Shown in pieces: positions 2,411 to 40,885 of a stretch of 42,282 nucleotides of DNA (position 1 is its first letter; each line of letters begins with the position of its first letter). The notes under the pieces are model-generated. The model ran no database searches, had not been told where the DNA came from, and saw only the letters and a program-made list of their open reading frames with translations. Location of the stretch: the NCBI GenBank assembly GCA_963656615.1, contig CAVKJF010000001.1, forward strand, positions 1 through 42,282, read 5' to 3'. The DNA comes from a bacterium (GTDB lineage Bacteria > Bacillota_I > Bacilli_A > RF39 > UBA660). The position numbers and the translations under genes were made by a program.

Positions 2411-3615
2411 TCTTTAGATTTTTTTGATATTAATTTAATTGAAGCCGGTGCTACTATAGATTTTCCAAACTTTTTGTTTATGTTATCAATAGTTGTTTGA
2501 ACTGTATCAGATGATGTCTTTACTTCTTCTTGGTCAAATAATGACATTTGATAATCATTTTGTTCTGTTAAGTCAGCCAATCTAAAACCTAGTAGTCTAA
2601 TAGGATCTTTTTTATAATTTTTTCTAAATATTGAAATAGCTATTTTATATATTTCGGTAATGTTGTTACTGGGCCTTTCTAATTTTTCTTGGGCTGAATA
2701 AGTTTCAAATTTATTATTTTTAAAAATTACAGCAATAGTTTTAGCGTATTGTTTTTTAGATCTTAATGTCCTAGTTGTTTTTTCTACAAAGGTAAAAAGA
2801 AGTTCTTCTAATTTATCTTCATTTGTACAGTCATATACTAGAGTTTCTGATACACTGATGCTTTTACTTTTGGTCTTCTTTTCTTCTAATCTACTTTCGT
2901 CGATACCATAAGATGCATTTTTTAAATATTCAGCTTGTCCTTTAAAATGCTTTTTTAATACTTTAATATCAGTTTTTGCTAAATCTTCTACTGTATATAC
3001 ATTTAATTTATTTAATACTTCTTTTGTCTTTCGACCAATGAATAACAAGTCTCCTACATCTAGAGGCCATAATTTTTGAACTATTTCATCTTTTAATAAG
3101 GTGTGAACTTTATCTGGCTTTTCAAAATCTGAAGCCATCTTGGCACAAAGCTTATTATTACCAATGCCAATGTTTACGGTGTAACCAAATTTTGTTTTTA
3201 TATCATCTTTTATATAATACGCTAACTCTAAATAGTTTTTATATAAATATTTAGTTCCTGTCATATCTATAAAACATTCATCTATAGAAAACTGTTCCAT
3301 ACTTGGTGAATATTGTGATAGATATGTGAATAACTCTTTTGATTTTTCTATATACCATTTATAATCTGGAGCAAAAACTTTTAGACCAGGACATTTCTTT
3401 CGTGCTTGATAAAGGGTTTCGGCAGTTACAATATTATATTTTTTCGCAACAGGTGACTTAGCTAAAACAATACCTTTTCTTTCTTTTTCGTTTCCACCTA
3501 TTACTGCTGGTATTTTTCGAATGTCTTCTTTGTAGCCTTCTTTAAGCAGTTTGACTGCTGTCCATGATAAAAAGGCATTATTAACATCTATATGAAAAAT
3601 AATTCTTTCTTTCAT
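2404..3615 (-). CDS. dinB: DNA polymerase IV (Y-family translesion polymerase)
   Basis: N-terminal IFHIDVNNAF and SIDECFIDMTG catalytic-acid motifs of Y-family polymerases. 403 aa, with a GGAGGG SD upstream. Confidence 0.88.
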   Translation of the reverse strand: MKERIIFHIDVNNAFLSWTAVKLLKEGYKEDIRKIPAVIGGNEKERKGIVLAKSPVAKKYNIVTAETLYQARKKCPGLKVFAPDYKWYIEKSKELFTYLSQYSPSMEQFSIDECFIDMTGTKYLYKNYLELAYYIKDDIKTKFGYTVNIGIGNNKLCAKMASDFEKPDKVHTLLKDEIVQKLWPLDVGDLLFIGRKTKEVLNKLNVYTVEDLAKTDIKVLKKHFKGQAEYLKNASYGIDESRLEEKKTKSKSISVSETLVYDCTNEDKLEELLFTFVEKTTRTLRSKKQYAKTIAVIFKNNKFETYSAQEKLERPSNNITEIYKIAISIFRKNYKKDPIRLLGFRLADLTEQNDYQMSLFDQEEVKTSSDTVQTTIDNINKKFGKSIVAPASIKLISKKSKEK

Positions 3616-3632
3616 GGTATCCCTCCAAAACC

Positions 3633-3661
3633 ATTATAGAACATTTTTTCGACTTTTTCAA
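3633..3661 (-). promoter_or_regulatory. dinB promoter with a LexA/DinR-box-like sequence in the spacer
   Basis: Minus strand: TTGAAA (3661-3656), 17 nt, TATAAT (3638-3633). The spacer holds GAAC-ATTT-TTTC (plus 3639-3650). This resembles the Firmicute SOS box CGAAC-N4-GTTCG with one degenerate half-site. Confidence 0.45.
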
Positions 3662-3745
3662 TCGGACTTCAGTTTTTCTGTGTACATTTATAGTTTACAT
3701 ATTATTTTTGAGATTTAGTACATAATAAAACTAGATGGTGATATT

Positions 3746-3997
3746 ATGAATAAATATGAAGTTAATATTTATGAACAAATTGCACGAAATATTAAAAAGT
3801 ATAGACATGAGGCGGGAATTACGCAAGCTGTCTTAGCTGAACGTGTTGGTGTTTCACATGAATTCATCAGGCGAATTGAGTCGAAAAAAGGTGTTAAAAC
3901 TTTTTCAGTCGATACAATTTGGAAAATATCTCTAGCTTTAAACATTGAAGTTGGAAAATTATTTGAAATAGATATAGATGAAGTAGTAAATTCATAA
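3746..3997 (+). CDS. XRE-family helix-turn-helix transcriptional regulator (HTH domain only)
   Basis: 83 aa. IKKYRHEAGITQAVLAERVGVSHEFIRRIESKK is a typical Cro/C1-type HTH. A GGTGA SD lies 5 nt upstream. The gene is divergent from dinB. Confidence 0.8.
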   Translation: MNKYEVNIYEQIARNIKKYRHEAGITQAVLAERVGVSHEFIRRIESKKGVKTFSVDTIWKISLALNIEVGKLFEIDIDEVVNS

Positions 3998-8968: not shown

Positions 8969-9979
8969 TTAATCACTTTCCTTTTCAGTACTAAATAAGA
9001 AGCCACCTAAAATCATACCAAAATAGTATGTTATAAAACGCCAAACAATTAGTAAAGCATTTAGTAATACTGTTGGCATAAAATTACCAAAGAATTTTAC
9101 GAAACTATATTCTATTCCACCCGAAGCACCAGGAATTGGTACAAATGAGCCAACTAACAATACATAAGCTGATGAAGTTATAGCAGTCATTGGATTTAAA
9201 CTGGTGAAGTCATGAAGACCATACATAATAAATAATGGAATTATATATAGGCAAGTTAAGCCAATGAAGTTTATTAGCACTCCAAAGATAAATATTTTTC
9301 TTTTTCCTAATAAATCTTTAGAAACATCGTGAAATTCCTCTAGTTTTTCATTCCAGTATGCTTTGGCCTTTGGAATATTTTTTATAATTTTAATTTTTCC
9401 TAAGAAGGTAATTACCCAATTAGATACTTTACCAGTTATAGTTTTAGATAGCATTATAACGTATAAAGCTATAGCTACAATTACGTTGATTATAAAGCCT
9501 AGTAGTACTAAGTGTTGAAGTAAGGCTACTTTAGGGAATAGATTAAAAGTCCAATTGCAAGCTACCGCTATAACACCATAGATAACTAGAGCAGTTTGAT
9601 AAAATATGAAATTTTCGATGGTAACACTGGTTGCTTTGCTTACTTTTATTCCATGTTCAGCAATCATATATACTTCCATTGGTTGTCCGCCTGTAGAAAA
9701 TGGAGTTATACCATTAAAAAACTGAGTTATTATATTATGTTTTATAGCCTCTTTAAATGTTAATTTGTCTTTTTCATTTACACTTCTATATATTATATAA
9801 GCTTTTGAAACAATATATATAAAATATAATAGTATGGCTATTAAAAGATAAAAGAGATTTATTTTTGATAGTGTAACAACTATACTTCCAAGATTATCTT
9901 TTAAAAGAAAAAAGAGTACTATTATAGTAATTATTAATAAAATTATACTGTTTCTCTTAATACTTTTTATTGTTTCCAT
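8969..9979 (-). CDS. polytopic membrane protein, LPG-synthase-TM / flippase-like (UPF0104) family
   Basis: Multiple TM helices. FFNGITPFSTGGQPMEVYMI and PIPGASGGIEYSF resemble the conserved loops of the MprF flippase-like domain family. Confidence 0.55.
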   Translation of the reverse strand: METIKSIKRNSIILLIITIIVLFFLLKDNLGSIVVTLSKINLFYLLIAILLYFIYIVSKAYIIYRSVNEKDKLTFKEAIKHNIITQFFNGITPFSTGGQPMEVYMIAEHGIKVSKATSVTIENFIFYQTALVIYGVIAVACNWTFNLFPKVALLQHLVLLGFIINVIVAIALYVIMLSKTITGKVSNWVITFLGKIKIIKNIPKAKAYWNEKLEEFHDVSKDLLGKRKIFIFGVLINFIGLTCLYIIPLFIMYGLHDFTSLNPMTAITSSAYVLLVGSFVPIPGASGGIEYSFVKFFGNFMPTVLLNALLIVWRFITYYFGMILGGFLFSTEKESD

Positions 9980-10475
9980 CTAATAGTCCTTCCTTAGCAA
10001 GATAGCTATCTTTATCAACTAGATAAATATTAGTGCCATTATCTTCGCCTAGGTCTTCAAAGCCTGATTCTAGTACTGTTAGGGATGTTCTAGTATCAGA
10101 ACTACTAATATTTATAAATACTTCTTCCATTCCTAAACCTTTTATGGCATATGATGTTGCTGATTGTAACATTAATTTTTTAGCACTCTCATTCTTCGAA
10201 GGAAGAAGTGTTAAATAGCAAGACTTTATGTCTTTATAACAATCAAGCATACAACCGGATATTAGAGCAGAACTTTCTTCAAGAAATAAGAATTGTTCTA
10301 CTTCATTTGAAGTCCTTATATAATCATTATAACCAGATTCTGTATACTTATCCTTGGTAGCTTTTAGAGCGTGTGATACTCCAAGGTCTTGAAATGAGTC
10401 AGCTTCATAATTTTTGATAAGTTCAGTATGTCTGTTATCATAAGGATTTGCTATTAAAAGGCTTTTATTTGCCAT
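9957..10475 (-). CDS. hypothetical cytoplasmic protein (possibly acyltransferase/GNAT-like fold)
   Basis: 172-aa ORF with an AGGTGA SD 6 nt upstream, packed 10 nt after pgk. Its end overlaps the next gene by 23 nt. The fold guess rests only on the C-terminal pattern (AIKGLGMEEVFINI...LESGFEDLG). Confidence 0.4.
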   Translation of the reverse strand: MANKSLLIANPYDNRHTELIKNYEADSFQDLGVSHALKATKDKYTESGYNDYIRTSNEVEQFLFLEESSALISGCMLDCYKDIKSCYLTLLPSKNESAKKLMLQSATSYAIKGLGMEEVFINISSSDTRTSLTVLESGFEDLGEDNGTNIYLVDKDSYLAKEGLLDGNNKKY

Positions 10476-30868: not shown

Positions 30869-31726
30869 TTATTTACCGCCTACTACTTCGTATGCATCAG
30901 TTACCACGAAAAAGGCATCTTTATCAATTATTTTTATACCTTCTGTTACTCGATAATATTCACTACTTGGTACTACAGTTAAAACCACCTTATTCTTTTT
31001 ATTTAAGAATCCACCCTTAACGTCAAAAACTGTTACACTGTGACCTAGTGTTCTAATGATATAGTCTTTGATTTGAGCTTCTTCTGATGTAATTATATAG
31101 AAAGCTTTGTTATTAGATATTCCGAGCAATACTTTATTAATAATTATACTATTTAAGTAGATTAAAATAATGGCATACATAACATTAGTAGAACCAAAGA
31201 ATATTCCGCCAATTAATACTACTGTTATATTTATAACGGCACTAGTTTTGGCAATTGGTATTTTGCAATACTTCTCTAGTATTTGACTTATTACAGGTAA
31301 TCCACCATTATTGTAGCCAGTTTTATACATGAGACCATTGGCAATTCCATTTAAGACACCAGCAAACAAAGTTATTGTAAACATATCACTATAATCCATT
31401 TGAATTATATCTGTTAATGGTTCAGTTATTTTTACAAAAAATGGATAAAGAACACTAGCTAATATGGTGACTGCTGTTACTTCTGGTCCTAAGTACATAA
31501 GACTTAAAAGAGCACATATGATTGATACTATTAATATCATTAGAGCTGGATCTATTCCATAAACATAATTTGTTATTGTAGCAATACCACCAGCACCTCC
31601 AGTTACTAAATTAACTGGTAATAGAAAAAGATTATATACTATTGCACTAAAGAATAATGATACGACTAGCATAGTGATTCTTTTTCCGACTTTTTTCTTT
31701 TTTAATTTTCCTATTACATCATCCAT
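30869..31726 (-). CDS. YitT-family membrane protein (DUF2179 C-terminal domain)
   Basis: Five TM helices with GGAGGIA/GYNNGG motifs and a C-terminal soluble domain (VTVFDVKGGF...FFVVTDAYEVVGG). The start is at ATG 31726 (GGAGGAG SD). Confidence 0.8.
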   Translation of the reverse strand: MDDVIGKLKKKKVGKRITMLVVSLFFSAIVYNLFLLPVNLVTGGAGGIATITNYVYGIDPALMILIVSIICALLSLMYLGPEVTAVTILASVLYPFFVKITEPLTDIIQMDYSDMFTITLFAGVLNGIANGLMYKTGYNNGGLPVISQILEKYCKIPIAKTSAVINITVVLIGGIFFGSTNVMYAIILIYLNSIIINKVLLGISNNKAFYIITSEEAQIKDYIIRTLGHSVTVFDVKGGFLNKKNKVVLTVVPSSEYYRVTEGIKIIDKDAFFVVTDAYEVVGGK

Positions 31727-31727
31727 A

Positions 31728-32609
31728 TCATTCTCCTCCGAATACTTCGTAAGCATCTGTTACTACAAAGAATGCATCTGGATCAATTTCAGATATTCCT
31801 TCTTTTAATCTGTAATAATCTTTAGTAGGTAATACACACATTAATACTGTTTGTTTTTCTTTGGCAAAGCCACCTTTAGCATTGAATACGGTAACACCAT
31901 GGTTTAAATATTTTAAGATATACTCTTTAATAGCTTGTTCTTCATCAGTTACGATATAGAATGCTTTACTGTCTGAGATACCTAAAATTACACGATCTGA
32001 TATTAAACTAATTATATAAAGGGTAATAATGGCATATAGTAATTTGTTTGTACCAAAGACAAACGAAGATAAAACTACAATTGTCCCATCTGTACATAGA
32101 ATACTTTTTCCAATACTTAATTTTAAATACTTATTTATTAATTGACTAAGCACATCTGTTCCGCCACCGGTATATCCTGCTTTAAAAATCATACCAGCTC
32201 CAAAACCATATAGGACACCACCAAAGACTGCTGATAACAATAACTGTGAGTTATCTATATCTATATAGGTTCCTATATCTGAAGTTAGTTTTACACATAT
32301 TGGAAAAACTAATGATCCAAGTATTGAACCTCTTGTTTTTTCTTTACCTAAAAATATATAACTAATTATTAATAAAATAATATTTCCAATTAAAATCACA
32401 GTAGAATAGTCGAATTTGAATAATTCATTTAGAATAATGGCAATACCACCTACACCACCGGCAACAATGTCGTTTGGCGCAAGAAATAAGTTATACGCTA
32501 TGGCAACCAAAAAACAGCCGATAATAAATCTGACTAATCTTTTGTATTTAGATTTTTCTCTTATTTCTTCTAATATTCTAAAATTTTTTTTCTGTGAAAA
32601 AATTCTCAT
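31728..32609 (-). CDS. YitT-family membrane protein (DUF2179), tandem paralogue
   Basis: Same architecture and motifs as its neighbour (GGVGGIAI, GYTGGGTD, VTVFNAKGGF...FFVVTDAYEVFGG). It starts 1 nt after the prfB stop. Confidence 0.8.
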   Translation of the reverse strand: MRIFSQKKNFRILEEIREKSKYKRLVRFIIGCFLVAIAYNLFLAPNDIVAGGVGGIAIILNELFKFDYSTVILIGNIILLIISYIFLGKEKTRGSILGSLVFPICVKLTSDIGTYIDIDNSQLLLSAVFGGVLYGFGAGMIFKAGYTGGGTDVLSQLINKYLKLSIGKSILCTDGTIVVLSSFVFGTNKLLYAIITLYIISLISDRVILGISDSKAFYIVTDEEQAIKEYILKYLNHGVTVFNAKGGFAKEKQTVLMCVLPTKDYYRLKEGISEIDPDAFFVVTDAYEVFGGE

Positions 32610-32610
32610 A

Positions 32611-33709
32611 TTATAACCCTCTTTTTAAACTTGCTTCAATAAAATCATCTAAATCTCCATCTAATACTTTAGAAACATTACTTGTTTCATAATTAGTACG
32701 GTGATCTTTTACTAGTGAATATGGATGCATTACATAACTTCTAATTTGTGAGCCAAACTCAATATTCATCTGGTCACCTTTTATTTGTTTTAATTCCTTT
32801 TCTTGTTCCTCATATTTTTTTAGTAATAATTTATTTCTTAAAACTTTCATCGCTTGTTCTTTATTTTGAATTTGACTACGTTCATTTTGACATGTTACTA
32901 CTATTTTAGTAGGTAAATGTGTTATTCTTACGGCTGAGTCTGTTGTATTTACTCCTTGTCCTCCACAACCTGATGAACGATAAACATCTATTTTTAAATC
33001 TTTTTCATCTATTTCTAGACTATTATCTTGTTCTATTTCTGGAGTTACTTCAATGGACGCAAAAGATGTATGTCGACGATTGTTAGAGTCGAATGGAGAT
33101 AATCTTACTAAACGATGAACTCCTTTTTCATTTTTTAAATATCCATAAGCATTCAAACCTTTTATAAGAAGTGAAGCACTTTTTATACCAGCTTCATCTC
33201 CTGCTTGATAATCTAATATTTCTATTTTATAGTTTTTCTTTTCACACCAGCGAGTATACATTCTATAAAGCATTAAAGCCCAGTCACATGCTTCTGTACC
33301 TCCGGCTCCAGAATGGATATCCATAATACAATTATTTTTGTCATACGGTCCCGATAATAGTAGAAGCATATTTAATTTTTCTAGCCTTTCTGGCATACCA
33401 ACAATAGATTCTTCTATTTGTTCAACTATTTCTTGATCAAAATCCAGTTTCATTAGTTCAATGAGTTCTAAATTTTCTTTAATACTATTAGCTATTTCTT
33501 CTATATTATCTATTTTTTCTTTGACACTAGAAATTTCTGATAAAACCTGATCTTTTCTTTCACGATCAGTCCAAAAAGATGGATCTTCAGTTTCTTTCTG
33601 AAGTTCTTTCAAATGTTCTTTTTCTTTATCGATGTCAAAGTGACCTCCATAAACTATTAACTTCTGATAAATATTTATTTAATGCTTGTTCCATTTCTTT
33701 TATTTCCAT
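32611..33709 (-). CDS. prfB: peptide chain release factor 2, expressed through programmed +1 frameshift
   Basis: Frame 0: ATG 33709, MEIKEMEQALNKYLSEVNSLWRSL, then in-frame TGA. The +1 frame continues DIDKEKEHLKELQKETEDP... into the 333-aa track ORF. That ORF carries the SPF (RLSPFD) and GGQ (SGCGGQGVN) motifs. Confidence 0.93.
33634..33648 (-). promoter_or_regulatory. prfB +1 frameshift site (internal SD GGAGG + CUU UGA C)
   Basis: Minus strand reads tGGAGGtcaCTTTGAC. GGAGG is at 33648-33644, CTT at 33640-33638 and TGA at 33637-33635. Confidence 0.9.
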
Positions 33710-33942: not shown

Positions 33943-33968
33943 AAAAGAGGATTTTTAATCCTCTTTTT
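33943..33968. terminator. bidirectional terminator closing the WYL-linked cassette
   Basis: AAAAGAGGAT-tttta-ATCCTCTTTTT. It lies 19 nt downstream of the stop of the 177-aa gene. Confidence 0.75.
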
Positions 33969-33986: not shown

Positions 33987-34520
33987 TTAAAGTTTATAAT
34001 CATCAGTCATTTTTTCACCAAGGTACATGGCATTTATATAAAACTGATCGCAGTTAACTCTAAATAATGGTTTTTTATAAGCATAGAACTCCAACTTTTC
34101 TTTATCAAAATCATTTGTTTTAATAAATTTATGAAAATTATTTCTAATATCATCAAATAATTCTTTGATACTGTTGTAACTTCTTAGTCCTTTCATATCA
34201 CTCCAAGATGCTTCAAACCAAGTATACTTGTCTTTATCTTTATATATTAAGAATGAATGTCCTGGTTTACTCTTGCCATTGTTTAGGACTACAAATACAG
34301 TTCTAAATGGATAATCATGTTTTTTGAAGAAGTCTCTTTCTACTTCACAGAGTTCCCAGCATATAGCGTGATCATTTTGTTTCATTTGTTTTAATGTTGG
34401 CATTTTATAATATTTTTTAAAGGCTTCTTTATCTAGTTTTTCATGAGTAGTATTGTTTTTATCATGCCATCCATAAGATATTTCTGATAGTTCTTTATTA
34501 AATTTCTCAATTTCTGTCAT
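33987..34520 (-). CDS. hypothetical protein, possible papain/transglutaminase-like Cys-His fold
   Basis: 177 aa. Candidate nucleophile in HAICWELCEVERDFF, a downstream His in KPGHSFLIY and an acidic/aromatic WFEASW. It overlaps the upstream gene by 14 nt. Confidence 0.35.
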   Translation of the reverse strand: MTEIEKFNKELSEISYGWHDKNNTTHEKLDKEAFKKYYKMPTLKQMKQNDHAICWELCEVERDFFKKHDYPFRTVFVVLNNGKSKPGHSFLIYKDKDKYTWFEASWSDMKGLRSYNSIKELFDDIRNNFHKFIKTNDFDKEKLEFYAYKKPLFRVNCDQFYINAMYLGEKMTDDYKL

Positions 34521-35805
34521 TTACTTCATCTCTTTCTATTAATAATTTACTACAGTTAATTACCTTATCTATTATATCTTTATTTTTATATTTTTGTAAA
34601 TCTTTACTTGCTCCTAAAATTTTATATATTATTTGGCGTTCTTCTAAGTATTTAATATTAGATAATTCTTGATAGTATTTTTTTACGTAAGTAAAGATAT
34701 TTTTATAGTCTTTTGGCTTTTGATATGGATCCATAACAATATCAGCCCAGCGCCATGGTTCTTGTTGCATCTGATAAATAATTCTAAATTCATAGTCAAT
34801 TGGCGCAATTAGGGTATCGTTAAAGTCTATTATTTTTACTTCCTCATTATTGTATAAGATATTATCAAAGTGTAAGTCATTATGCAGTAGCACATATTGA
34901 ACATCTTCTGATAGATATTTATCATATAGATTAAGAGATTCTTGAATCATGTTGTATTCTTTTACAGTAAATAATTGGCTTACATTTTCTAAATTTTTGG
35001 CAACAGTACTTTTAATTTCTTTTAGCCAAGTAGAAGTTGAATTTGTATTTACCTGATATGTATTTTTATGAAGTTCTTTTACTACTTCTACTATTTTTTT
35101 AATAGTATTTTCTTTTTCTTTTTCAGTCATTTTATAGTAATAGTAATATAGAGTTTTTCCAGGTAGCTGTTCCATTATTTCATAGACATAAGGCACATGT
35201 TCTTTACTGTTATCATATTTATATAATTTAGGAATGAACTTGTTATCTTTATTTTTTGTGTAGAATTCATACTCTTTATCAAATGTATTTTCTTTATCCT
35301 TATTAGTACATACTTTTATAATATATTTATTATTTACACTGAACAAAGTATTATTAAAACCAGCGTTAACTTCGTATATATTTTTTATTATTGGTCCAAA
35401 AATATCTTCATTTTTACTCGCTATTAAAGTACCTAGCTGTAATCTTTCTTGAACTAAGTTTCTTGTTACCTCAAATATTTCAAAGATAATCTCTGTTTCA
35501 TCATTAAATTCTTTGTAAAAACTTTTAAAAAATTCAGTATGGACATTTTTCCAATAAGTAAGTGACAAATCGCCTTCACCTTCAAGTTTAGCTAACTCTT
35601 CTGTCATATCTTTAAATTTTAAAACATGATACTCTTTGGTCTTTACAATACAAGCATCTTTTTCATTATCAAAGTGAATTATCGATTCTTCACCTATTGC
35701 AGGAATATTTTCTTCATTATATAGATATGTTGTTGCAACTTTTTTACCTGCTAGGACTAGGTTTACTAAATTGTCGTTGTCCATTCCAAAACTCCAGTTT
35801 TCCAT
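34507..35805 (-). CDS. ASCH-domain / aminoglycoside-phosphotransferase-like (protein-kinase-like fold) kinase fusion
   Basis: The N-terminal ~110 aa show the ASCH pattern (LVLAGKKVATT...EGEGDLSLTYWKNVH). The C-terminal part has LLHNDLHFDNILYNNEEVKIIDFND, i.e. the HxDxxxxN...IDxxD catalytic/Mg loop of APH/choline-kinase-type kinases. AAGGAG SD upstream. Confidence 0.7.
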   Translation of the reverse strand: MENWSFGMDNDNLVNLVLAGKKVATTYLYNEENIPAIGEESIIHFDNEKDACIVKTKEYHVLKFKDMTEELAKLEGEGDLSLTYWKNVHTEFFKSFYKEFNDETEIIFEIFEVTRNLVQERLQLGTLIASKNEDIFGPIIKNIYEVNAGFNNTLFSVNNKYIIKVCTNKDKENTFDKEYEFYTKNKDNKFIPKLYKYDNSKEHVPYVYEIMEQLPGKTLYYYYYKMTEKEKENTIKKIVEVVKELHKNTYQVNTNSTSTWLKEIKSTVAKNLENVSQLFTVKEYNMIQESLNLYDKYLSEDVQYVLLHNDLHFDNILYNNEEVKIIDFNDTLIAPIDYEFRIIYQMQQEPWRWADIVMDPYQKPKDYKNIFTYVKKYYQELSNIKYLEERQIIYKILGASKDLQKYKNKDIIDKVINCSKLLIERDEVNDRN

Positions 35806-35806
35806 T

Positions 35807-36607
35807 TTATTCTCCTTTTATTTTGCTCTGTTGCATTTGTTTTGTGTATACTTTGTAGCTATCGTCAGGCTCTACAACACCATAGTCATGAATATTTTCA
35901 GCCAGTGCACCATTTAAGTCATAGAAAGTTGGCCAAGCAGCAGGACTAGTAGCAATTTTTATAGAAAGATCTGTATTACATCTTCTAGTGATATAGCCAT
36001 TTATTGCTTGATATGACGCTAAAGGCATTCTTTTGTCTATTTCAAATATTAGTCCATAATAAGAATCTATGTTTAGTGCTTTTTTCGTTTTTGTTGCTAA
36101 ATCAACAGCATTTATAAAGGGAATTTTTAGGCTGTCAGGATCAAACCAAGACTGATCACCCTGTAAGTATTCAACATAATAATTTGAATACATTTTCCTT
36201 GATTCTTCTAGAATACTTTTAAGTTCTTCTAATGACCTAGCTTGTGTATGCTGTTTATGTCCGTATAATCTATTTATTCTTTCTAGCAAATCATTTATTT
36301 TTGACATTGAAGTATTTAATTTTCCTTGTTCTAATATTCTTCTAATAATACTTTCTGAAATGGAAAAGTCTAAAAATTCATTTGCAATTAGTCTAACAGT
36401 TCCAGAATTAATATTTTCATTTATTGGTTTACTTAAAGGTAGAGAAAAGTCTTCCATGTAGATGGCAACTGGCGAAGCAGAATCTGTTAATATTGGATAT
36501 GCCCTTTCTAAATCTTTTAAAAACCTATGTCTACCTTCAGTATTATAACCATAGATAAACTGATGGCGGTTTTCTTCCATAATTTGTTTTCTTGTATATT
36601 CGTTCAT
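35807..36607 (-). CDS. hypothetical protein (possibly a degenerate P-loop NTPase-like fold lacking Walker A)
   Basis: 266 aa with no recognisable catalytic motif. YYGLIFEIDKRMP resembles a Walker-B strand, but no GxxxxGK[ST] is present. The stop overlaps the SD of the next gene. Confidence 0.3.
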   Translation of the reverse strand: MNEYTRKQIMEENRHQFIYGYNTEGRHRFLKDLERAYPILTDSASPVAIYMEDFSLPLSKPINENINSGTVRLIANEFLDFSISESIIRRILEQGKLNTSMSKINDLLERINRLYGHKQHTQARSLEELKSILEESRKMYSNYYVEYLQGDQSWFDPDSLKIPFINAVDLATKTKKALNIDSYYGLIFEIDKRMPLASYQAINGYITRRCNTDLSIKIATSPAAWPTFYDLNGALAENIHDYGVVEPDDSYKVYTKQMQQSKIKGE

Positions 36608-36683
36608 AACCTCACCCAGGAATTAGTATACCATGCATAGTCTTAAATATAAAGTTTTCAATATTATAATTTTATGTTTTTCT

Positions 36684-37604
36684 TTAAATTTGTCCGGAAT
36701 ATTTATATAATTTCTTGTTTACTGGTGAATATTCTACTTTTGATAAGTCTTTTGACTGTTTTGCTGCCAAAGACCTTGTTAGATACATTGCTTGAACAAG
36801 CATTTGAAAATCATCTATAACTTGATCTGTTGATTTTGATTCAATAACTATTACATCTTGGTAGTATTGTTTTAATTCTTCTAACATTATCTTATCAAAT
36901 TCAGTTCCTCTATTGAAATAGATGGCATTACTTTGTTGAACGGTAGATAAAGTCGAACGACCATGGCAGTATGAATACTTATCATGTACTATAGGTATAC
37001 CTATGCCTGACTCTACTAATGTTGACTCTAAATACTTGGCAGCAGTTTTTGTATCGTAGCCTGAAAATATTTCATAAATGTTGCTTGGCTCAAATGAAAA
37101 ATCTTTTTCTATAATTAGGTCTAATAATTTATTATCTTCTCCTTCTAAATAATAGTCCATTAAAATACTAATTGGAATTAGAGTTGCTCCTAAAGATATA
37201 AAACTTCTTTCTTTATCTATTGTTGTTTGATATTGCAGATTTACTACGTCTTCAGATGGTGATGGATTATTAGATAATAAATACTTTTTTAAGTAATTAT
37301 TAAATGATAACTCAACACCATAGTTATTTCCAGAATAACTACAAGAAATGACATTTTTAAAACCAGAAGTTCCTCGATATAAGAAATCTCTTGGTTCACA
37401 GTTGATACTTATTATGCCATTTTTTTGATTTAGCACTTTACTGCCAAATTCACTTACAACACTAGATCCACCTACACCAGATATGATACTGGCATCTTTT
37501 ATTTTTAGAAGTTCACTTCTTATGAACTCTAAATCCGTTTTGTCCAACGCATCTTCTACTCTCCTTTTCAAATATTCAAAATTAATTTTCATGTTCTTTT
37601 CCAT
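36684..37604 (-). CDS. double SIS (sugar isomerase/phosphosugar-binding) domain-like protein
   Basis: First half: IISGVGGSSVVSEF and ISCSYSGNNYGVE (SIS G-x-G-x-S and S-x-SG-x-T/N patterns). Second half: IFSGYD...AAKYLESTLVESG...HDKYSYCHGRSTL, resembling the second SIS of the GlmS/AgaS/FrlB type. Confidence 0.5.
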   Translation of the reverse strand: MEKNMKINFEYLKRRVEDALDKTDLEFIRSELLKIKDASIISGVGGSSVVSEFGSKVLNQKNGIISINCEPRDFLYRGTSGFKNVISCSYSGNNYGVELSFNNYLKKYLLSNNPSPSEDVVNLQYQTTIDKERSFISLGATLIPISILMDYYLEGEDNKLLDLIIEKDFSFEPSNIYEIFSGYDTKTAAKYLESTLVESGIGIPIVHDKYSYCHGRSTLSTVQQSNAIYFNRGTEFDKIMLEELKQYYQDVIVIESKSTDQVIDDFQMLVQAMYLTRSLAAKQSKDLSKVEYSPVNKKLYKYSGQI

Positions 37605-37645
37605 AAAAAAATCCTCCTCAAGTTCAATATAACTTGAGAGGAGGA
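37605..37645 (-). terminator. strong intrinsic terminator whose 3' arm contains the SD of the next gene
   Basis: Minus RNA: UCCUCCUCUCAAGUU-auauug-AACUUGAGGAGGA, 13 bp with one bulge, followed by U7 (37611-37605) and then directly the ATG at 37604. Confidence 0.75.
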
Positions 37646-37655
37646 AATATTTCGT

Positions 37656-38258
37656 CTACTCATACTTTTCATTTAACAATTCGTAAGTTATAATTCTTTT
37701 CAATTCAAAATGCCTAATGTCTTGTTTCTTTTCACAGAAGGCGGCGCAGTACCAACCGTTTTGAAACAAAAACATTTCTGCAGGATCAATTACTCTTTCG
37801 TTTTCTCCCTTGTTGTAAGAATAATAACGAATCTTTACTTTTCTTTTTTCTTTTATGGCTCTTGTTAGTAAATTAAATTTCTTTTGAGTTTCATCTTCTA
37901 ATTTAAATTTATTTGTATCTTGTTTTGAGCCAATGTAGATTCCTTTTATTTTTTCTTGAAGATTTAGAAGTTTTTCTTTTTGTTTTGGATTAGTTTCATA
38001 TTCAATATAGCTATCTAGCATTTTATAGTCGTCTTCTTTAAATTTTCTAATAGGTACTTTAACTGGTTTTCTTAAAAAGTAACCACCATATGGTCCTAAT
38101 ATAGACTCAATATATATACCTGCTTTTTCTAAGTCCTCTTTATATACTCTAATCATTCTTTCGGAAACTTCCAAAATATCGGATAATTCATTGATACTAT
38201 ACTTACGTCCAGAGTTCAATAATTCTAATAAAGTTATGGCATTAGATACTTTTGACAT
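37656..38258 (-). CDS. HTH + WYL-domain transcriptional regulator (YafY/BrxR/CapW-like, short form)
   Basis: N-terminal wHTH (YSINELSDILEVSERMIRVYKEDLEKAG). C-terminal WYL domain (KVKIRYYSYNKGENERVIDPAEMFLFQNGWYCAAFC...IRHFELKRI). Confidence 0.85.
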   Translation of the reverse strand: MSKVSNAITLLELLNSGRKYSINELSDILEVSERMIRVYKEDLEKAGIYIESILGPYGGYFLRKPVKVPIRKFKEDDYKMLDSYIEYETNPKQKEKLLNLQEKIKGIYIGSKQDTNKFKLEDETQKKFNLLTRAIKEKRKVKIRYYSYNKGENERVIDPAEMFLFQNGWYCAAFCEKKQDIRHFELKRIITYELLNEKYE

Positions 38259-38266
38259 AATTATAC

Positions 38267-38512
38267 TTATTTTATAACACTTTCTATTTTTTGTAGTTCA
38301 AAACGATATTTTTGTTTTATATCTGGATACTTTTCATGATCTACTTCACTTAAAAACATATCCATAGGTCTTACCCATAGGTCATTGCTTCCATATAGAG
38401 CTCTATAGACAACACACTCTTCGCCAGTCTCTGAATATTTAGCAGTATCAACAACTAAGTAATAGTTTCCTTTAAAGTGTTTATATATGCCATTTATTTT
38501 TACTTTATTCAT
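38267..38512 (-). CDS. DUF1653-family small protein
   Basis: 81 aa. [14 protein letters not shown]...[28 protein letters not shown] matches the DUF1653 pattern from memory. Confidence 0.7.
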
Positions 38513-38686
38513 CTTATCACGCCTTTCTAATTATATTATAGCAGAAAAAACATGATTGCTTTCAATTTTTTACCTACGGAACAAAAAGTTATTATTAAGG
38601 TTTTTAATCAAAGTGTTTACTTTATTTTTGGTATTCTAAACTAGTTGGTAATTAGTAATTTTAGACTTTTAGTTATAGATAAGCAA

Positions 38687-38714
38687 AAGACGAATCGGAA
38701 TTCGTCTTGTTTTT
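38687..38714. terminator. terminator closing the SPASM operon
   Basis: AAGACGAAT (38687-38695), loop cgga, ATTCGTCTT (38700-38708), then GTTTTT. It lies 24 nt downstream of the deacetylase stop. Confidence 0.7.
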
Positions 38715-39501: not shown

Positions 39502-40521
39502 TTAATTATTGTCTTCTAAAATCCATTCTTGAAAATATTTGATTTTTGTATGGCAATAAGAACATTCGCCATCAGCAATATTTATTGATGCACCACAGTT
39601 ATGGCACTTTATAAGATGTTCTTTGTCATTAAGTTTTAATGGTTCAGTATTAAGTTTTTTCATTAAATATTTCTGGTTCATAGTTTTTGATATTATTCTA
39701 TTATTTTCGTAGTAGACAATTCTTACATCAGCAACTACTTCAACATATAAGTTGTTATTTTTAGTTGATTCTTGAAAACTTATGTAATCTAGAACATCAT
39801 AGTCTATTACATTTGCTTCGCTATAGTATTTTTTTCTTACTTCATAATTGAAATTATTGAAGAATTTTTTCTTATCTATTTTTGTTCTGTTCCAAAAATC
39901 AATTTGTTTTTGATTTTGTTTATCTTTATATATTTTTATTGGTGTTAAGACTATGTAGGCATCTACTATATAAAATAGATAATATAAAATGGCCGCTAGA
40001 ATTAGACCATAGATAAATATTTTGGAAATATCATAACTGTTGAATGTTCTACCAGTTGTTTTTATAAATACATAACTTAGTATAAAACTAACTATTAAAT
40101 CTATTATGGCTGTTACTATTCTATAGGTATTACTTTTTAATACTCTATCATAATGGTATTTACTTCCTAAATCTTTATTTGTATAGTCAATGTTGTAGTA
40201 AGTTCGACAATATGGACAACCTTCTAAAAAGTCTTTTAGTTTAGAATGCATTCCACAATTGTGACAGGTATATTCGGTATTTTCAGCATCTTTTGAGATG
40301 AAAGTGTACTCGATTCTGGAGTCAAAGTTTTTTTCAACATGTAATAATTGATTATTTATGTAGTAATCTTTTTCACATCTTATACCATTAGAAATATCAT
40401 CATTATTGGAGTTATCTGTATTACGTTCTAGTATTGTGTTGCCAACAATGTATTTAGTTTTAATATTAATTCCATATTTATTTAGTTTTTTAATATGATA
40501 ATTGTCAGATAATAATGGCAT
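39502..40521 (-). CDS. two-TM membrane protein with two CxxC...CxxC zinc-ribbon motifs
   Basis: CHNCGMHSKLKDFLEGCPYC and CHNCGASINIADGECSYC, with two hydrophobic helices between them. The start is at ATG 40521 (GGAG SD 8 nt upstream). The 38-codon His/Thr/Ile-rich extension in the ORF track overlaps the upstream gene. Confidence 0.7.
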   Translation of the reverse strand: MPLLSDNYHIKKLNKYGINIKTKYIVGNTILERNTDNSNNDDISNGIRCEKDYYINNQLLHVEKNFDSRIEYTFISKDAENTEYTCHNCGMHSKLKDFLEGCPYCRTYYNIDYTNKDLGSKYHYDRVLKSNTYRIVTAIIDLIVSFILSYVFIKTTGRTFNSYDISKIFIYGLILAAILYYLFYIVDAYIVLTPIKIYKDKQNQKQIDFWNRTKIDKKKFFNNFNYEVRKKYYSEANVIDYDVLDYISFQESTKNNNLYVEVVADVRIVYYENNRIISKTMNQKYLMKKLNTEPLKLNDKEHLIKCHNCGASINIADGECSYCHTKIKYFQEWILEDNN

Positions 40522-40531
40522 ACTTATTCTC

Positions 40532-40885
40532 CTATCTATTATTATTGTTATTGTTGTTATTGTTATTATTATTGTTTGATGATGATCCACCATATGATGA
40601 ACCTGAAGATGATGGTGTATAGTGCAAAATAACATTAAAAATCGTATTAGACATTATGATTCCATCAATAGCACTGTTTATACAATTTAAATTGAGCATA
40701 GTAATGTTACTTCCGGAAATAAGTTTTATAAGATTTCCTGAACAGTTAACTTCTCCAGTTGGATTATTAGCTAGAAATTGATAAATTTGTTCTAATTCTT
40801 CACCAGTTAAGTTATAGTATCTTGTTAAATCTACGCATCTTTTTTGCCTTATCAATTCTTCATATGTTTCTGGTTCTTTATTCAT
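40532..40885 (-). CDS. 117-aa protein with Ser/Gly/Tyr-rich, poly-Asn C-terminal tail; translationally coupled to the SPASM enzyme
   Basis: AAGGAG SD 8 nt upstream. Its ATG overlaps the upstream stop (ATGAATAA). Three Cys (C17, C48, C68). Tail: TPSSSGSSYGGSSS-N13-R. Confidence 0.65.
   Translation of the reverse strand: MNKEPETYEELIRQKRCVDLTRYYNLTGEELEQIYQFLANNPTGEVNCSGNLIKLISGSNITMLNLNCINSAIDGIIMSNTIFNVILHYTPSSSGSSYGGSSSNNNNNNNNNNNNNR
40538..40576 (-). repeat. (AAY)13 trinucleotide tract encoding poly-Asn
   Basis: Plus strand reads att att att gtt att gtt gtt att gtt att att att gtt. Confidence 0.9.

Follow-up and report, generated by a model that had tools for sequence, protein, structure and literature searches.

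Whether a run of genes behind a WYL regulator forms a single regulated system is the question raised by a block of six genes (positions 38512 to 33987, minus strand) in a stretch of bacterial DNA of 42,282 nucleotides (nt) (GTDB lineage Bacillota_I, Bacilli_A, RF39, UBA660; GenBank assembly GCA_963656615.1, contig CAVKJF010000001.1, positions 1 to 42,282), the whole of which is referred to here as the window. In the direction of transcription the block comprises a DUF1653 gene, a gene for a short helix-turn-helix (HTH) protein with a WYL domain, and four genes here called g1 to g4, of which g1 encodes a double-SIS-like protein and g3 a fusion of an ASCH domain with an APH-type kinase. The first-pass annotation had regarded g1 to g4 as one cassette under the control of the WYL protein, with a candidate role in phage defence or in the modification of small molecules. 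The region is instead a mosaic of two unrelated units, namely Unit A, which consists of the WYL gene, a leader and g1, and Unit B, which consists of g2, g3 and g4. For Unit A, we hold with moderate confidence that the HTH-WYL protein binds a dyad-symmetric site in the leader and, together with a hairpin in the same leader, gates the expression of the SIS enzyme depending on a ligand that the WYL domain detects.

Synteny was surveyed with g1, for which 1571 homologues were found, as the anchor: 91 genome stretches encode a relative, and 80 loci were kept, one per species, from uncultured gut Bacilli. The genomes surveyed, which include Mycoplasma sp. CAG:877, Clostridium sp. CAG:594 and Candidatus Coprovivens, are presumably RF39-like. 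The HTH-WYL gene (38258-37656, minus strand, 200 amino acids (aa)) is found directly upstream of g1 (37604-36684, minus strand, 306 aa; 51-nt spacer after the WYL gene) and on the same strand at 76 of the 80 loci. A gene for g2 follows g1 at 9/80 loci, g3 and g4 are present at 5/80, and DUF1653 stands directly upstream of the WYL gene at 9/80, all of these being restricted to the closest relatives of the window. Only the WYL gene and g1 are thus conserved, and the four-gene cassette is not a conserved unit, because its synteny fails beyond the nearest clade and because genes for ASCH-APH proteins occur in unrelated neighborhoods. A lack of synteny had been named in the first-pass annotation as grounds for refutation, and by this standard the survey largely refutes the reading of the genes as one system. 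Unit A (37602-38258, plus g1 to 36684) is conserved across an order-level lineage of uncultured, small-genome gut Bacilli. When compared with release factor 2 (RF2), the WYL protein is the more conserved of the two in 81% of genome pairs and the g1 product in 60%, which indicates a core function rather than defence.

The leader between the WYL gene and g1 (64 nt in Unit A) combines two elements. The first is a 16-bp dyad box (37656-37641, minus strand; halves GACGAAAT and ATTTCCTC, full box GACGAAATAYTTCCTC, as a duplex GACGAAATATTTCCTC), the first G of which is also the final nucleotide of the WYL stop codon. The second is a hairpin (37644-37613, minus strand) with the 5' arm CCTCCTCTCAAGTT, a 6-nt loop and the 3' arm AACTTGAGGAGG, which carries the Shine-Dalgarno sequence of g1, and a run of seven U (37611-37605, minus strand) lies between the hairpin and the g1 ATG at 37604. 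A terminator scan likewise placed a terminator-like hairpin in this spacer (37616-37639, minus strand) and others at both ends of the block, in agreement with the flanking terminators and the gating hairpin described earlier. The spacer is nearly invariant across species in which g1 itself is only 52-70% identical to the window protein, and the columns of the box are 90-100% conserved in 67 unique sequences, as against 50-80% in the coding flanks. Dyad symmetry holds at 7/8 positions, and the centre of the dyad reads TATACT in L085 and AATATT or AATACT in other species. The box occurs as a single copy in the window; the dyad does not recur 5' of the WYL gene (best match with at least 4 mismatches), and a search for a motif shared upstream of the WYL gene returned AT-rich k-mers only.

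The hairpin has a stem of 12-14 bp, a mean stability of -17.7 kcal/mol and a median U-run of 6, and fully pairs the Shine-Dalgarno sequence in 56/57 unique leaders. Judged by its sequence, it has the stable stem-loop followed by a U-run that is expected of an intrinsic terminator, and it looks like both a terminator and a block to translation. In the leader alignment 97.6% of the cells pair, and 9/11 pairs change on both sides; none of 500 shuffles (0/500) attains these values and slid controls pair at 42-70%, while the observed figures lean towards structure as the alignment was fitted to a covariance model, which was built from a gap-free seed. RNAalifold predicted no pairs on a MAFFT alignment of the leader, because MAFFT misaligned the arms of the hairpin. 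In a search of 1.4 Mb with the covariance model, the loci gave a single copy each, invariably 5' of g1, and no further copy turned up.

The presence of the leader tracks that of the regulator. Box and WYL gene co-occur completely, as both are found at 76 loci and neither at 4. At the four loci without a WYL gene (L019, L057, L061 and L065), which probably reflect two independent losses, the box and the hairpin are also missing and g1 has a plain ribosome-binding site. At L071, three genes lie between the WYL gene and g1, and the leader remains with g1. At L085 (~9830-10003), an extra hairpin resembling an intrinsic terminator separates the WYL stop codon from the box, hence g1 should need its own promoter there. 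All these arrangements together indicate that the leader belongs to g1 and tracks the WYL protein in trans.

The regulator itself is minimal. It consists of an HTH_11 domain (residues 9-60, E 4e-8) and a WYL domain (PF13280, residues 128-192, E 3.7e-19), as identified with Pfam, and stops at residue 200, which is 8 residues past the WYL domain, so that it has no C-terminal WCX domain; its homologues measure 194-214 aa. The WYL domain matches the structures of PafBC, CapW and BrxR, and a CRISPR-associated WYL profile of PADLOC matches the protein over nearly its full length (2e-31). In PHROGs, the WYL protein and the DUF1653 protein match families of unknown function only.

The product of g1 escaped most direct searches: it has no match in Pfam, where a scan of the family member by member gave chance matches only, none among PDB sequences in profile searches with a shallow or a diverse alignment, and none when its profile was aligned to E. 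coli GlmS with hhalign. Its double-SIS character, which had been suspected earlier, is nevertheless supported by profile matches, motifs and structural comparison. The bifunctional PGI/PMI model TIGR02128 is matched by 22/23 members of the g1 family (best E 1e-7), always colinearly over the first SIS phosphate-binding region (profile positions 8-79), with scores of 15-31 bits that do not reach the curated cut-off of 213.9. All 36 Foldseek matches at E<=1e-3 are double-SIS isomerases or deglycases, at TM-scores of ~0.3 and with a poor AlphaFold2 (AF2) model (pLDDT 54), the input of which was homologues of at least 69% identity. The SIS phosphate-binding motifs, a GxGxS loop and an SxSGxT/N loop, are present in the family, in which the conserved motifs are GVGGS (43-47), SYSGxN (89-94) and HDKYxxCHGRS (207-217). 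In an alignment of 23 sequences with 53-90% identity to the window protein, G43, V44, G45, G46, S47, S89, Y90, G92 and N94 are invariant and S91 is Ser or Gly, E198 and H214 are likewise invariant, and K297 is nearly so. The spacing of Glu198, His214 and Lys297 resembles that of the Glu/His/Lys catalytic set of double-SIS enzymes. The g1 family is thus probably a new family within the double-SIS fold, a distant relative of PGI/PMI and not a PGI/PMI equivalog; the assignment of g1 as just a housekeeping pgi gene was rejected.

Some members of the family are longer at the N-terminus. A Cys-rich extension of ~118 aa occurs in the L034-L045 class and in L046, L053 and L019 (L034:9647-10918, L046:671-1957, L019:~2690-3963), and one of ~38 aa in L070 (L070:4203-5225) and L083. 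Where g1 carries an N-terminal extension, the leader precedes the ATG of the extension.

From this arrangement we infer a mode of control in which the WYL protein, as a dimer, would occupy the 16-bp dyad (GACGAAAT and ATTTCCTC) between its own stop codon and g1, while the right half of the dyad would double as the anti-Shine-Dalgarno arm of the stable hairpin (~-18 kcal/mol). The hairpin would hide the g1 ribosome-binding site and, with the U-run, mimic an intrinsic terminator, so that g1 is proposed to be off by default. A ligand at the WYL domain would alter the occupancy of the box, upon which g1 would be transcribed and translated; candidate ligands are a phosphosugar, a sugar nucleotide or, as in other WYL factors, a single-stranded nucleic acid. 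The product of g1 may then isomerise, deaminate or deglycate a phosphosugar.

Several points weigh against this reading. A search by eye around the box revealed no convincing sigma-70 promoter for g1, hence a DNA operator would have to function by a roadblock mechanism or through a weak promoter within the dyad (AATATT or TATACT at its centre). A 7/8 dyad in AT-rich sequence is only modestly improbable, with an estimate of ~1e-3 per position, and since its right half also serves as the anti-Shine-Dalgarno arm, that half is under constraint in any case. As the box is invariant, it provides no covariation evidence for either a DNA or an RNA reading. On the side of the enzyme, the TIGR02128 profile covers only residues ~20-94 of g1, and the poor quality of the AF2 model has already been noted.

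The rival that survives best, although we consider it unlikely, is that the leader acts as RNA, with the single-stranded box (GUAGACGAAAUAUUU) and the Shine-Dalgarno-sequestering terminator hairpin forming a new cis-regulatory RNA rather than a DNA operator. A Sm-like WYL domain or a metabolite, as in a small riboswitch, would bind this RNA and decide between termination or sequestration and the expression of g1. The clear covariation of the hairpin and a loop of variable length (6-10 nt) suit RNA better than the spacing of protein half-sites, the paired Shine-Dalgarno sequence in 56/57 leaders with the U-run next to it points the same way, and with no evident promoter by the box, the box is probably transcribed from upstream. 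It can also pair weakly with the anti-Shine-Dalgarno arm (11/14 positions), which allows for a possible alternative structure, but this pairing is much weaker than the Shine-Dalgarno hairpin and practically loopless, and the invariance of the box gives it no covariation. The Cas13d accessory protein WYL1 binds single-stranded RNA. WYL domains of DriD and CapW bind single-stranded DNA (PMC10853764; PMC11662680), so that recognition of a single-stranded nucleic acid would have precedent, yet the WYL protein has a canonical HTH, which is typical of DNA binders. The conserved part of the leader measures only ~50 nt, which leaves little space for a ligand pocket, and no Rfam family matches it: the window holds no match at the gathering score, and those around the leader are at chance level (E>=3). 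It is more doubtful still that the leader represents a new class of cis-regulatory RNA that is read by a Sm-like WYL domain, which would make the short HTH-WYL protein an RNA-binding regulator of termination or translation for a hitherto unrecognized, essential-grade phosphosugar enzyme; if so, g1 might supply a step that is missing from amino-sugar or hexose-phosphate metabolism. Genes for the synthesis of UDP-GlcNAc have been reported as missing from some RF39 genomes (PMC7301438).

It is improbable that the leader is a mere device for translational coupling or attenuation, in which a ribosome that finishes the upstream open reading frame (ORF) melts the hairpin and frees the g1 Shine-Dalgarno sequence, and in which the box is kept for reasons other than the WYL protein, such as the context of the stop codon or a processing site. 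The upstream ORF always terminates 11-40 nt ahead of the hairpin, and at most loci the WYL stop codon is 11 nt from the stem and hence within reach of a terminating ribosome. This distance varies, however, with a UAA at 15 nt in one class and a distance of ~37 nt in L018 and L021, while the box stays constant. The box is also unchanged at L071, where the upstream gene is a different one, and at L085 a separate terminator stands between the WYL gene and the box. Moreover, box and hairpin vanish where the WYL gene has been lost, although g1 still follows another gene there.

The weakest reading, which we regard as very improbable, is that DUF1653, the WYL gene and the four downstream genes form one WYL-switched system for phage defence or small-molecule modification: six co-oriented genes between two terminator-like hairpins, the frequent position of WYL regulators at the head of defence islands (PMC9122601), a six-gene order that is held in the nearest relatives L001, L009-13, L090 and L114 (with 62-84% identity in g2), a weak structural similarity of g2 to RdrA of the RADAR system and a sub-threshold mad3 match of the kinase speak for it, but synteny is lost past the nearest clade, the conserved cis element precedes g1 alone, a promoter-like site splits g1 from g2, genes for ASCH-APH, g2-like and g4-like proteins occur elsewhere without the WYL gene or g1, PADLOC detects no system, the WYL protein and g1 evolve as slowly as RF2, unlike defence genes, viral contigs are without g1, g2 and g3, and co-orientation is a rule throughout the window. 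The last point deprives the shared orientation of its information, since, of the 45 window ORFs that reach 100 aa, the minus strand carries 38, and 5 of the 7 plus-strand ORFs are nested in longer ones of the minus strand. In PADLOC-DB 2.0, generic WYL accessory models match the WYL protein and the kinase has the weak mad3 match (E 7e-5, below threshold), whereas g1, g2, g4 and DUF1653 match nothing; scans of viral contigs gave no match to g1, g2 or g3. A literature search for WYL domains together with SIS domains returned nothing relevant either, so that the earlier remark that the combination is unlike any described system stands, while nothing supports the role in phage defence that had been proposed for it. 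A separate proposal, that the WYL gene and g1 are a mobile or defence pair, was rejected in view of their RF2-like conservation and their fixed position between secA and prfB.

The remaining genes of the block are accessory neighbors. DUF1653 (38512-38267, minus strand, 81 aa) is the first gene and is followed after 8 nt by the WYL gene; g2 (36607-35807, minus strand, 266 aa) comes after a 76-nt spacer behind g1, g3 (35805-34507, minus strand, 432 aa) after a gap of 1 nt, and g4 (34520-33987, minus strand, 177 aa) overlaps g3 by 14 nt. These reading frames and spacings are exactly as first annotated, and the DUF1653, HTH-WYL and ASCH-APH domain calls were confirmed by Pfam. The DUF1653 domain is clear (E 6e-26), and a promoter-like site 5' of the gene (38535-38565, minus strand), with TTGAAA, a 19-nt spacer and the extended -10 element TGCTATAAT, was recognized by eye from its resemblance to the consensus. 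DUF1653 lies beside the WYL gene on its upstream side only in L001, L009-13 and L016-18/L021; it is downstream of g1 in L015, and on the opposite strand, ~7 kb off, in L085. It is therefore an accessory neighbor and not a conserved partner of the WYL gene.

The spacer of 76 nt between g1 and g2 harbors a promoter-like site (36625-36653, minus strand; TTTATA, a 17-nt spacer and TATACT with a preceding TG as an extended -10 element), which was found as a consensus match in a promoter scan, and Unit B, a clade-specific, tightly packed trio, probably has its own promoter. For g2, only 15 homologues were found, and a look-up of its exact sequence gave no record. Its Pfam match to an ORC-CDC6-like family (PF24389) scores 22 bits, below the cut-off of 27 bits, and the equivalent of the Walker A motif is degenerate (GYNTEGRH vs GxxxxGK[ST]). 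The AF2 model of g2 has a pLDDT of 80.5 and a pTM of 0.84; no Foldseek match was found with it at E<=1e-3, and weak matches are to HslU, RdrA, ABC ATPases and TrwB (E>=3.7e-3). The g2 protein is lineage-restricted, and its model weakly suggests a P-loop-NTPase-like fold.

In g3, the ASCH domain (3e-17) and the APH domain (PF01636, 4e-16) were identified with Pfam, and matches in the PDB are the ASCH structures 1T62 (3e-11) and 3S9X and a spectinomycin phosphotransferase. The catalytic motifs of the kinase are intact, namely the beta-3 Lys, the alpha-C Glu, the HxDxxxxN catalytic loop and the metal-binding Asp, and K164, E178, H308-x-D310-x4-N315 and D327 are invariant in 20 sequences with 48-80% identity to the window protein. 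The ASCH-APH family comprises at least 414 homologues, which are mostly stand-alone and in some cases fused to GNAT or peptidase S51; those of ~600-640 aa with such an extra domain are P0040, P0119, P0105, P0108 and P0109. Homologues at <=60% identity lie in unrelated neighborhoods, those of L002, L003 and most of L089-L128 standing on their own. NUDIX and HIT genes are often found near the kinase elsewhere, three different NUDIX proteins and one HIT protein being encoded there. A literature search for ASCH domains fused to phosphotransferases returned nothing relevant.

Members of the g4 family fall into 618 representative clusters. Homologues of g4 match the transglutaminase-like model DUF553, at or near the threshold, and Transglut_core, while g4 itself matches no model. 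The possible Cys-His site that had been remarked upon in g4 gains weight from the family, as Cys54, His88 and Glu103 are 97-100% conserved in 69 members, and on these residues g4 is a candidate transglutaminase-like (papain-fold) thiol enzyme. The g4 domain is also found, sometimes twice, inside proteins of 800-1669 aa together with GNAT and Transglut_core domains (P0285-P0306 and others), and is fused to an HD domain in P0290.

Outside the clade of the window, the genes of Unit B meet again on occasion. In L102 and L116, which belong to an independent lineage, a g2-like gene and ASCH-APH are adjacent and convergent, and g4-like genes lie 2.5-4 kb from ASCH-APH in L003/L005 and L096. At L008, a homologue of g2 lies beside separate genes for a peptidase S51, a GNAT protein and an amidoligase, of which S51 and GNAT belong to the same families that are fused to ASCH-APH elsewhere, and a NUDIX gene is found 3' of g2 in L016-L021. 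Most likely, g2 to g4 are accessory enzymes that act on a nucleoside, a nucleotide or a similar small molecule, and were most likely inserted into the hypervariable interval between secA and prfB. Characterized ASCH enzymes hydrolyse N4-acylcytidines (PMC6972931; bioRxiv 10.64898/2026.02.27.708502), and a role in nucleoside or nucleotide salvage or detoxification is a reasonable but weak guess, because of this activity and of the NUDIX and HIT neighbors. Counting against it, the catalytic Lys and Thr/Glu of YqfB-type ASCH enzymes lie in a GKTR or GKER motif (bioRxiv 10.64898/2026.02.27.708502), whereas in g3 Lys22 is invariant in the motif GKKVAT, as in the YhfF/1T62 subgroup, hence N4-acylcytidine activity is not implied; outside the clade, moreover, g2, g3 and g4 are associated loosely and in few independent lineages. 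Of the small-molecule modification that had been proposed for the whole cassette, it is plausible that a part holds for g3, and perhaps for g2 and g4, as loose accessory enzymes, but not for a WYL-gated cassette.

The block is situated in a chromosomal interval of changing content. In the 80-locus survey, both flanks of the WYL-g1 pair are hypervariable, with secA to one side and prfB to the other. The secA-prfB interval (L009-L088, ~5 kb on each side of g1) is filled with small, co-oriented accessory genes, many of which were found at one locus only, and its cargo includes Fic, RhuM, UDG-like, NUDIX, NTP-transferase, thioredoxin and HD proteins and an AAA_23/AAA_15/AAA_21 ATPase. Within the window, 7 hairpins were observed in the region by the terminator scan against 1.5 expected. 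One of these (38687-38708, minus strand) closes the upstream neighbor of the block, a polysaccharide deacetylase gene (match to Polysacc_deac_1), and sets the upstream boundary of the transcription unit; another (33943-33967, minus strand), 20 nt 3' of the g4 stop codon and ahead of prfB, marks the downstream limit. The position of the block beside the core prfB operon is confirmed: the downstream genes are prfB, two YitT paralogues, ftsE, ftsX and a PcsB-like M23 peptidase. In agreement with the first-pass annotation, no tRNA gene was found in the window, and no integrase was seen among the neighboring genes scanned.

Some of these neighbors have features of their own. The prfB gene (32611-33706, minus strand) has the classical programmed +1 frameshift of RF2, its first frame running from the ATG at 33706 to GGAGG TCA CTT TGA C near 33640 and the main frame on to 32611. 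The two YitT/DUF2179 membrane-protein paralogues are arranged in tandem 3' of prfB (30869-32609, minus strand), before ftsE, ftsX and the gene for the PcsB-like M23 peptidase. Upstream of the deacetylase gene, an ORF of 377 aa (39502-40635, minus strand) begins with an odd His-rich Ile/Thr-repeat start (MLFCTIHHHLQVHHMVDHHQTIIITITTITIII), overlaps the preceding ORF of 117 aa by ~100 nt and has zinc-ribbon-like CxxC pairs in its C-terminal part; on account of the overlap and the odd start, its true start is probably further downstream.

What remains of the block is a WYL regulator of minimal size, a leader that unusually combines a putative operator with a hairpin, and an uncharacterized, highly conserved SIS enzyme. 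In at least 76 species of an uncultured gut lineage, the HTH-WYL protein is tied to a gene resembling those of sugar-phosphate enzymes by a near-invariant cis element. WYL regulators are known so far as switches of phage defence and of the response to DNA damage. Should the link be confirmed, they would be shown to control core metabolism as well, a tractable triplet of regulator, site and target would be at hand, and a conserved enzyme family that has no Pfam model would be flagged. The locus also calls for caution, in that tightly packed, co-oriented genes beside a WYL regulator need not form one system.

The known systems that come closest to the parts of the region differ from them in several respects. 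The g3 protein shares the APH fold with an intact catalytic loop with the aminoglycoside-type kinases, and its type of ASCH domain, with the motif GKKVAT, with YhfF-type proteins (PDB 1T62), but it joins both domains in a fusion that is uncharacterized. It reaches none of the NCBIfam models for resistance kinases (23 bits for APH(3'), against a cut-off of 205 bits), and its neighbors are NUDIX, HIT and GNAT proteins rather than resistance cassettes. The g1 protein is alike in length to PGI/PMI (306 aa against a profile of 308 positions; TIGR02128; P. aerophilum, PDB 1TZB), and with this enzyme and other double-SIS enzymes, such as the isomerase domain of GlmS, NagB-II and FraB/FrlB, it shares the GVGGS and SYSGxN motifs, its Foldseek matches being solely such enzymes. 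The g1 family differs from them in an invariant HDKYSYCHGRS motif of its own, and some members add the Cys-rich N-terminal domain of ~118 aa.

The leader resembles Shine-Dalgarno-sequestering leaders, intrinsic terminators and small riboswitches with a terminator stem in the order of its parts, a stable stem with the Shine-Dalgarno sequence in its 3' arm, a U-run and the start codon, and in the conserved segment 5' of the stem. In contrast to these, it matches no Rfam family, its conserved 5' segment of ~16 nt forms a DNA dyad with the 5' arm of the stem, and its presence tracks a protein regulator. For the regulator, the comparison is with proteins that combine a winged HTH, a WYL and a WCX domain, BrxR, CapW, PafBC and DriD, which likewise have an N-terminal HTH and a WYL domain, are encoded directly upstream of an apparent target and have a dyad-symmetric candidate site. 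The window protein differs in that it has 200 aa and no WCX dimerization domain, whereas WCX-bearing proteins measure ~290-330 aa, and in that it evolves slowly, like RF2. Its candidate site is 3' of the regulator gene and joined to a Shine-Dalgarno-sequestering hairpin, instead of being located in the promoter of the regulator itself, and the gene that is conserved beside it encodes a SIS enzyme instead of belonging to an operon for defence or DNA damage. The module thus behaves like a WYL-regulated operon but, without a WCX domain and without a defence or DNA-damage target, it falls outside the class that these regulators define.

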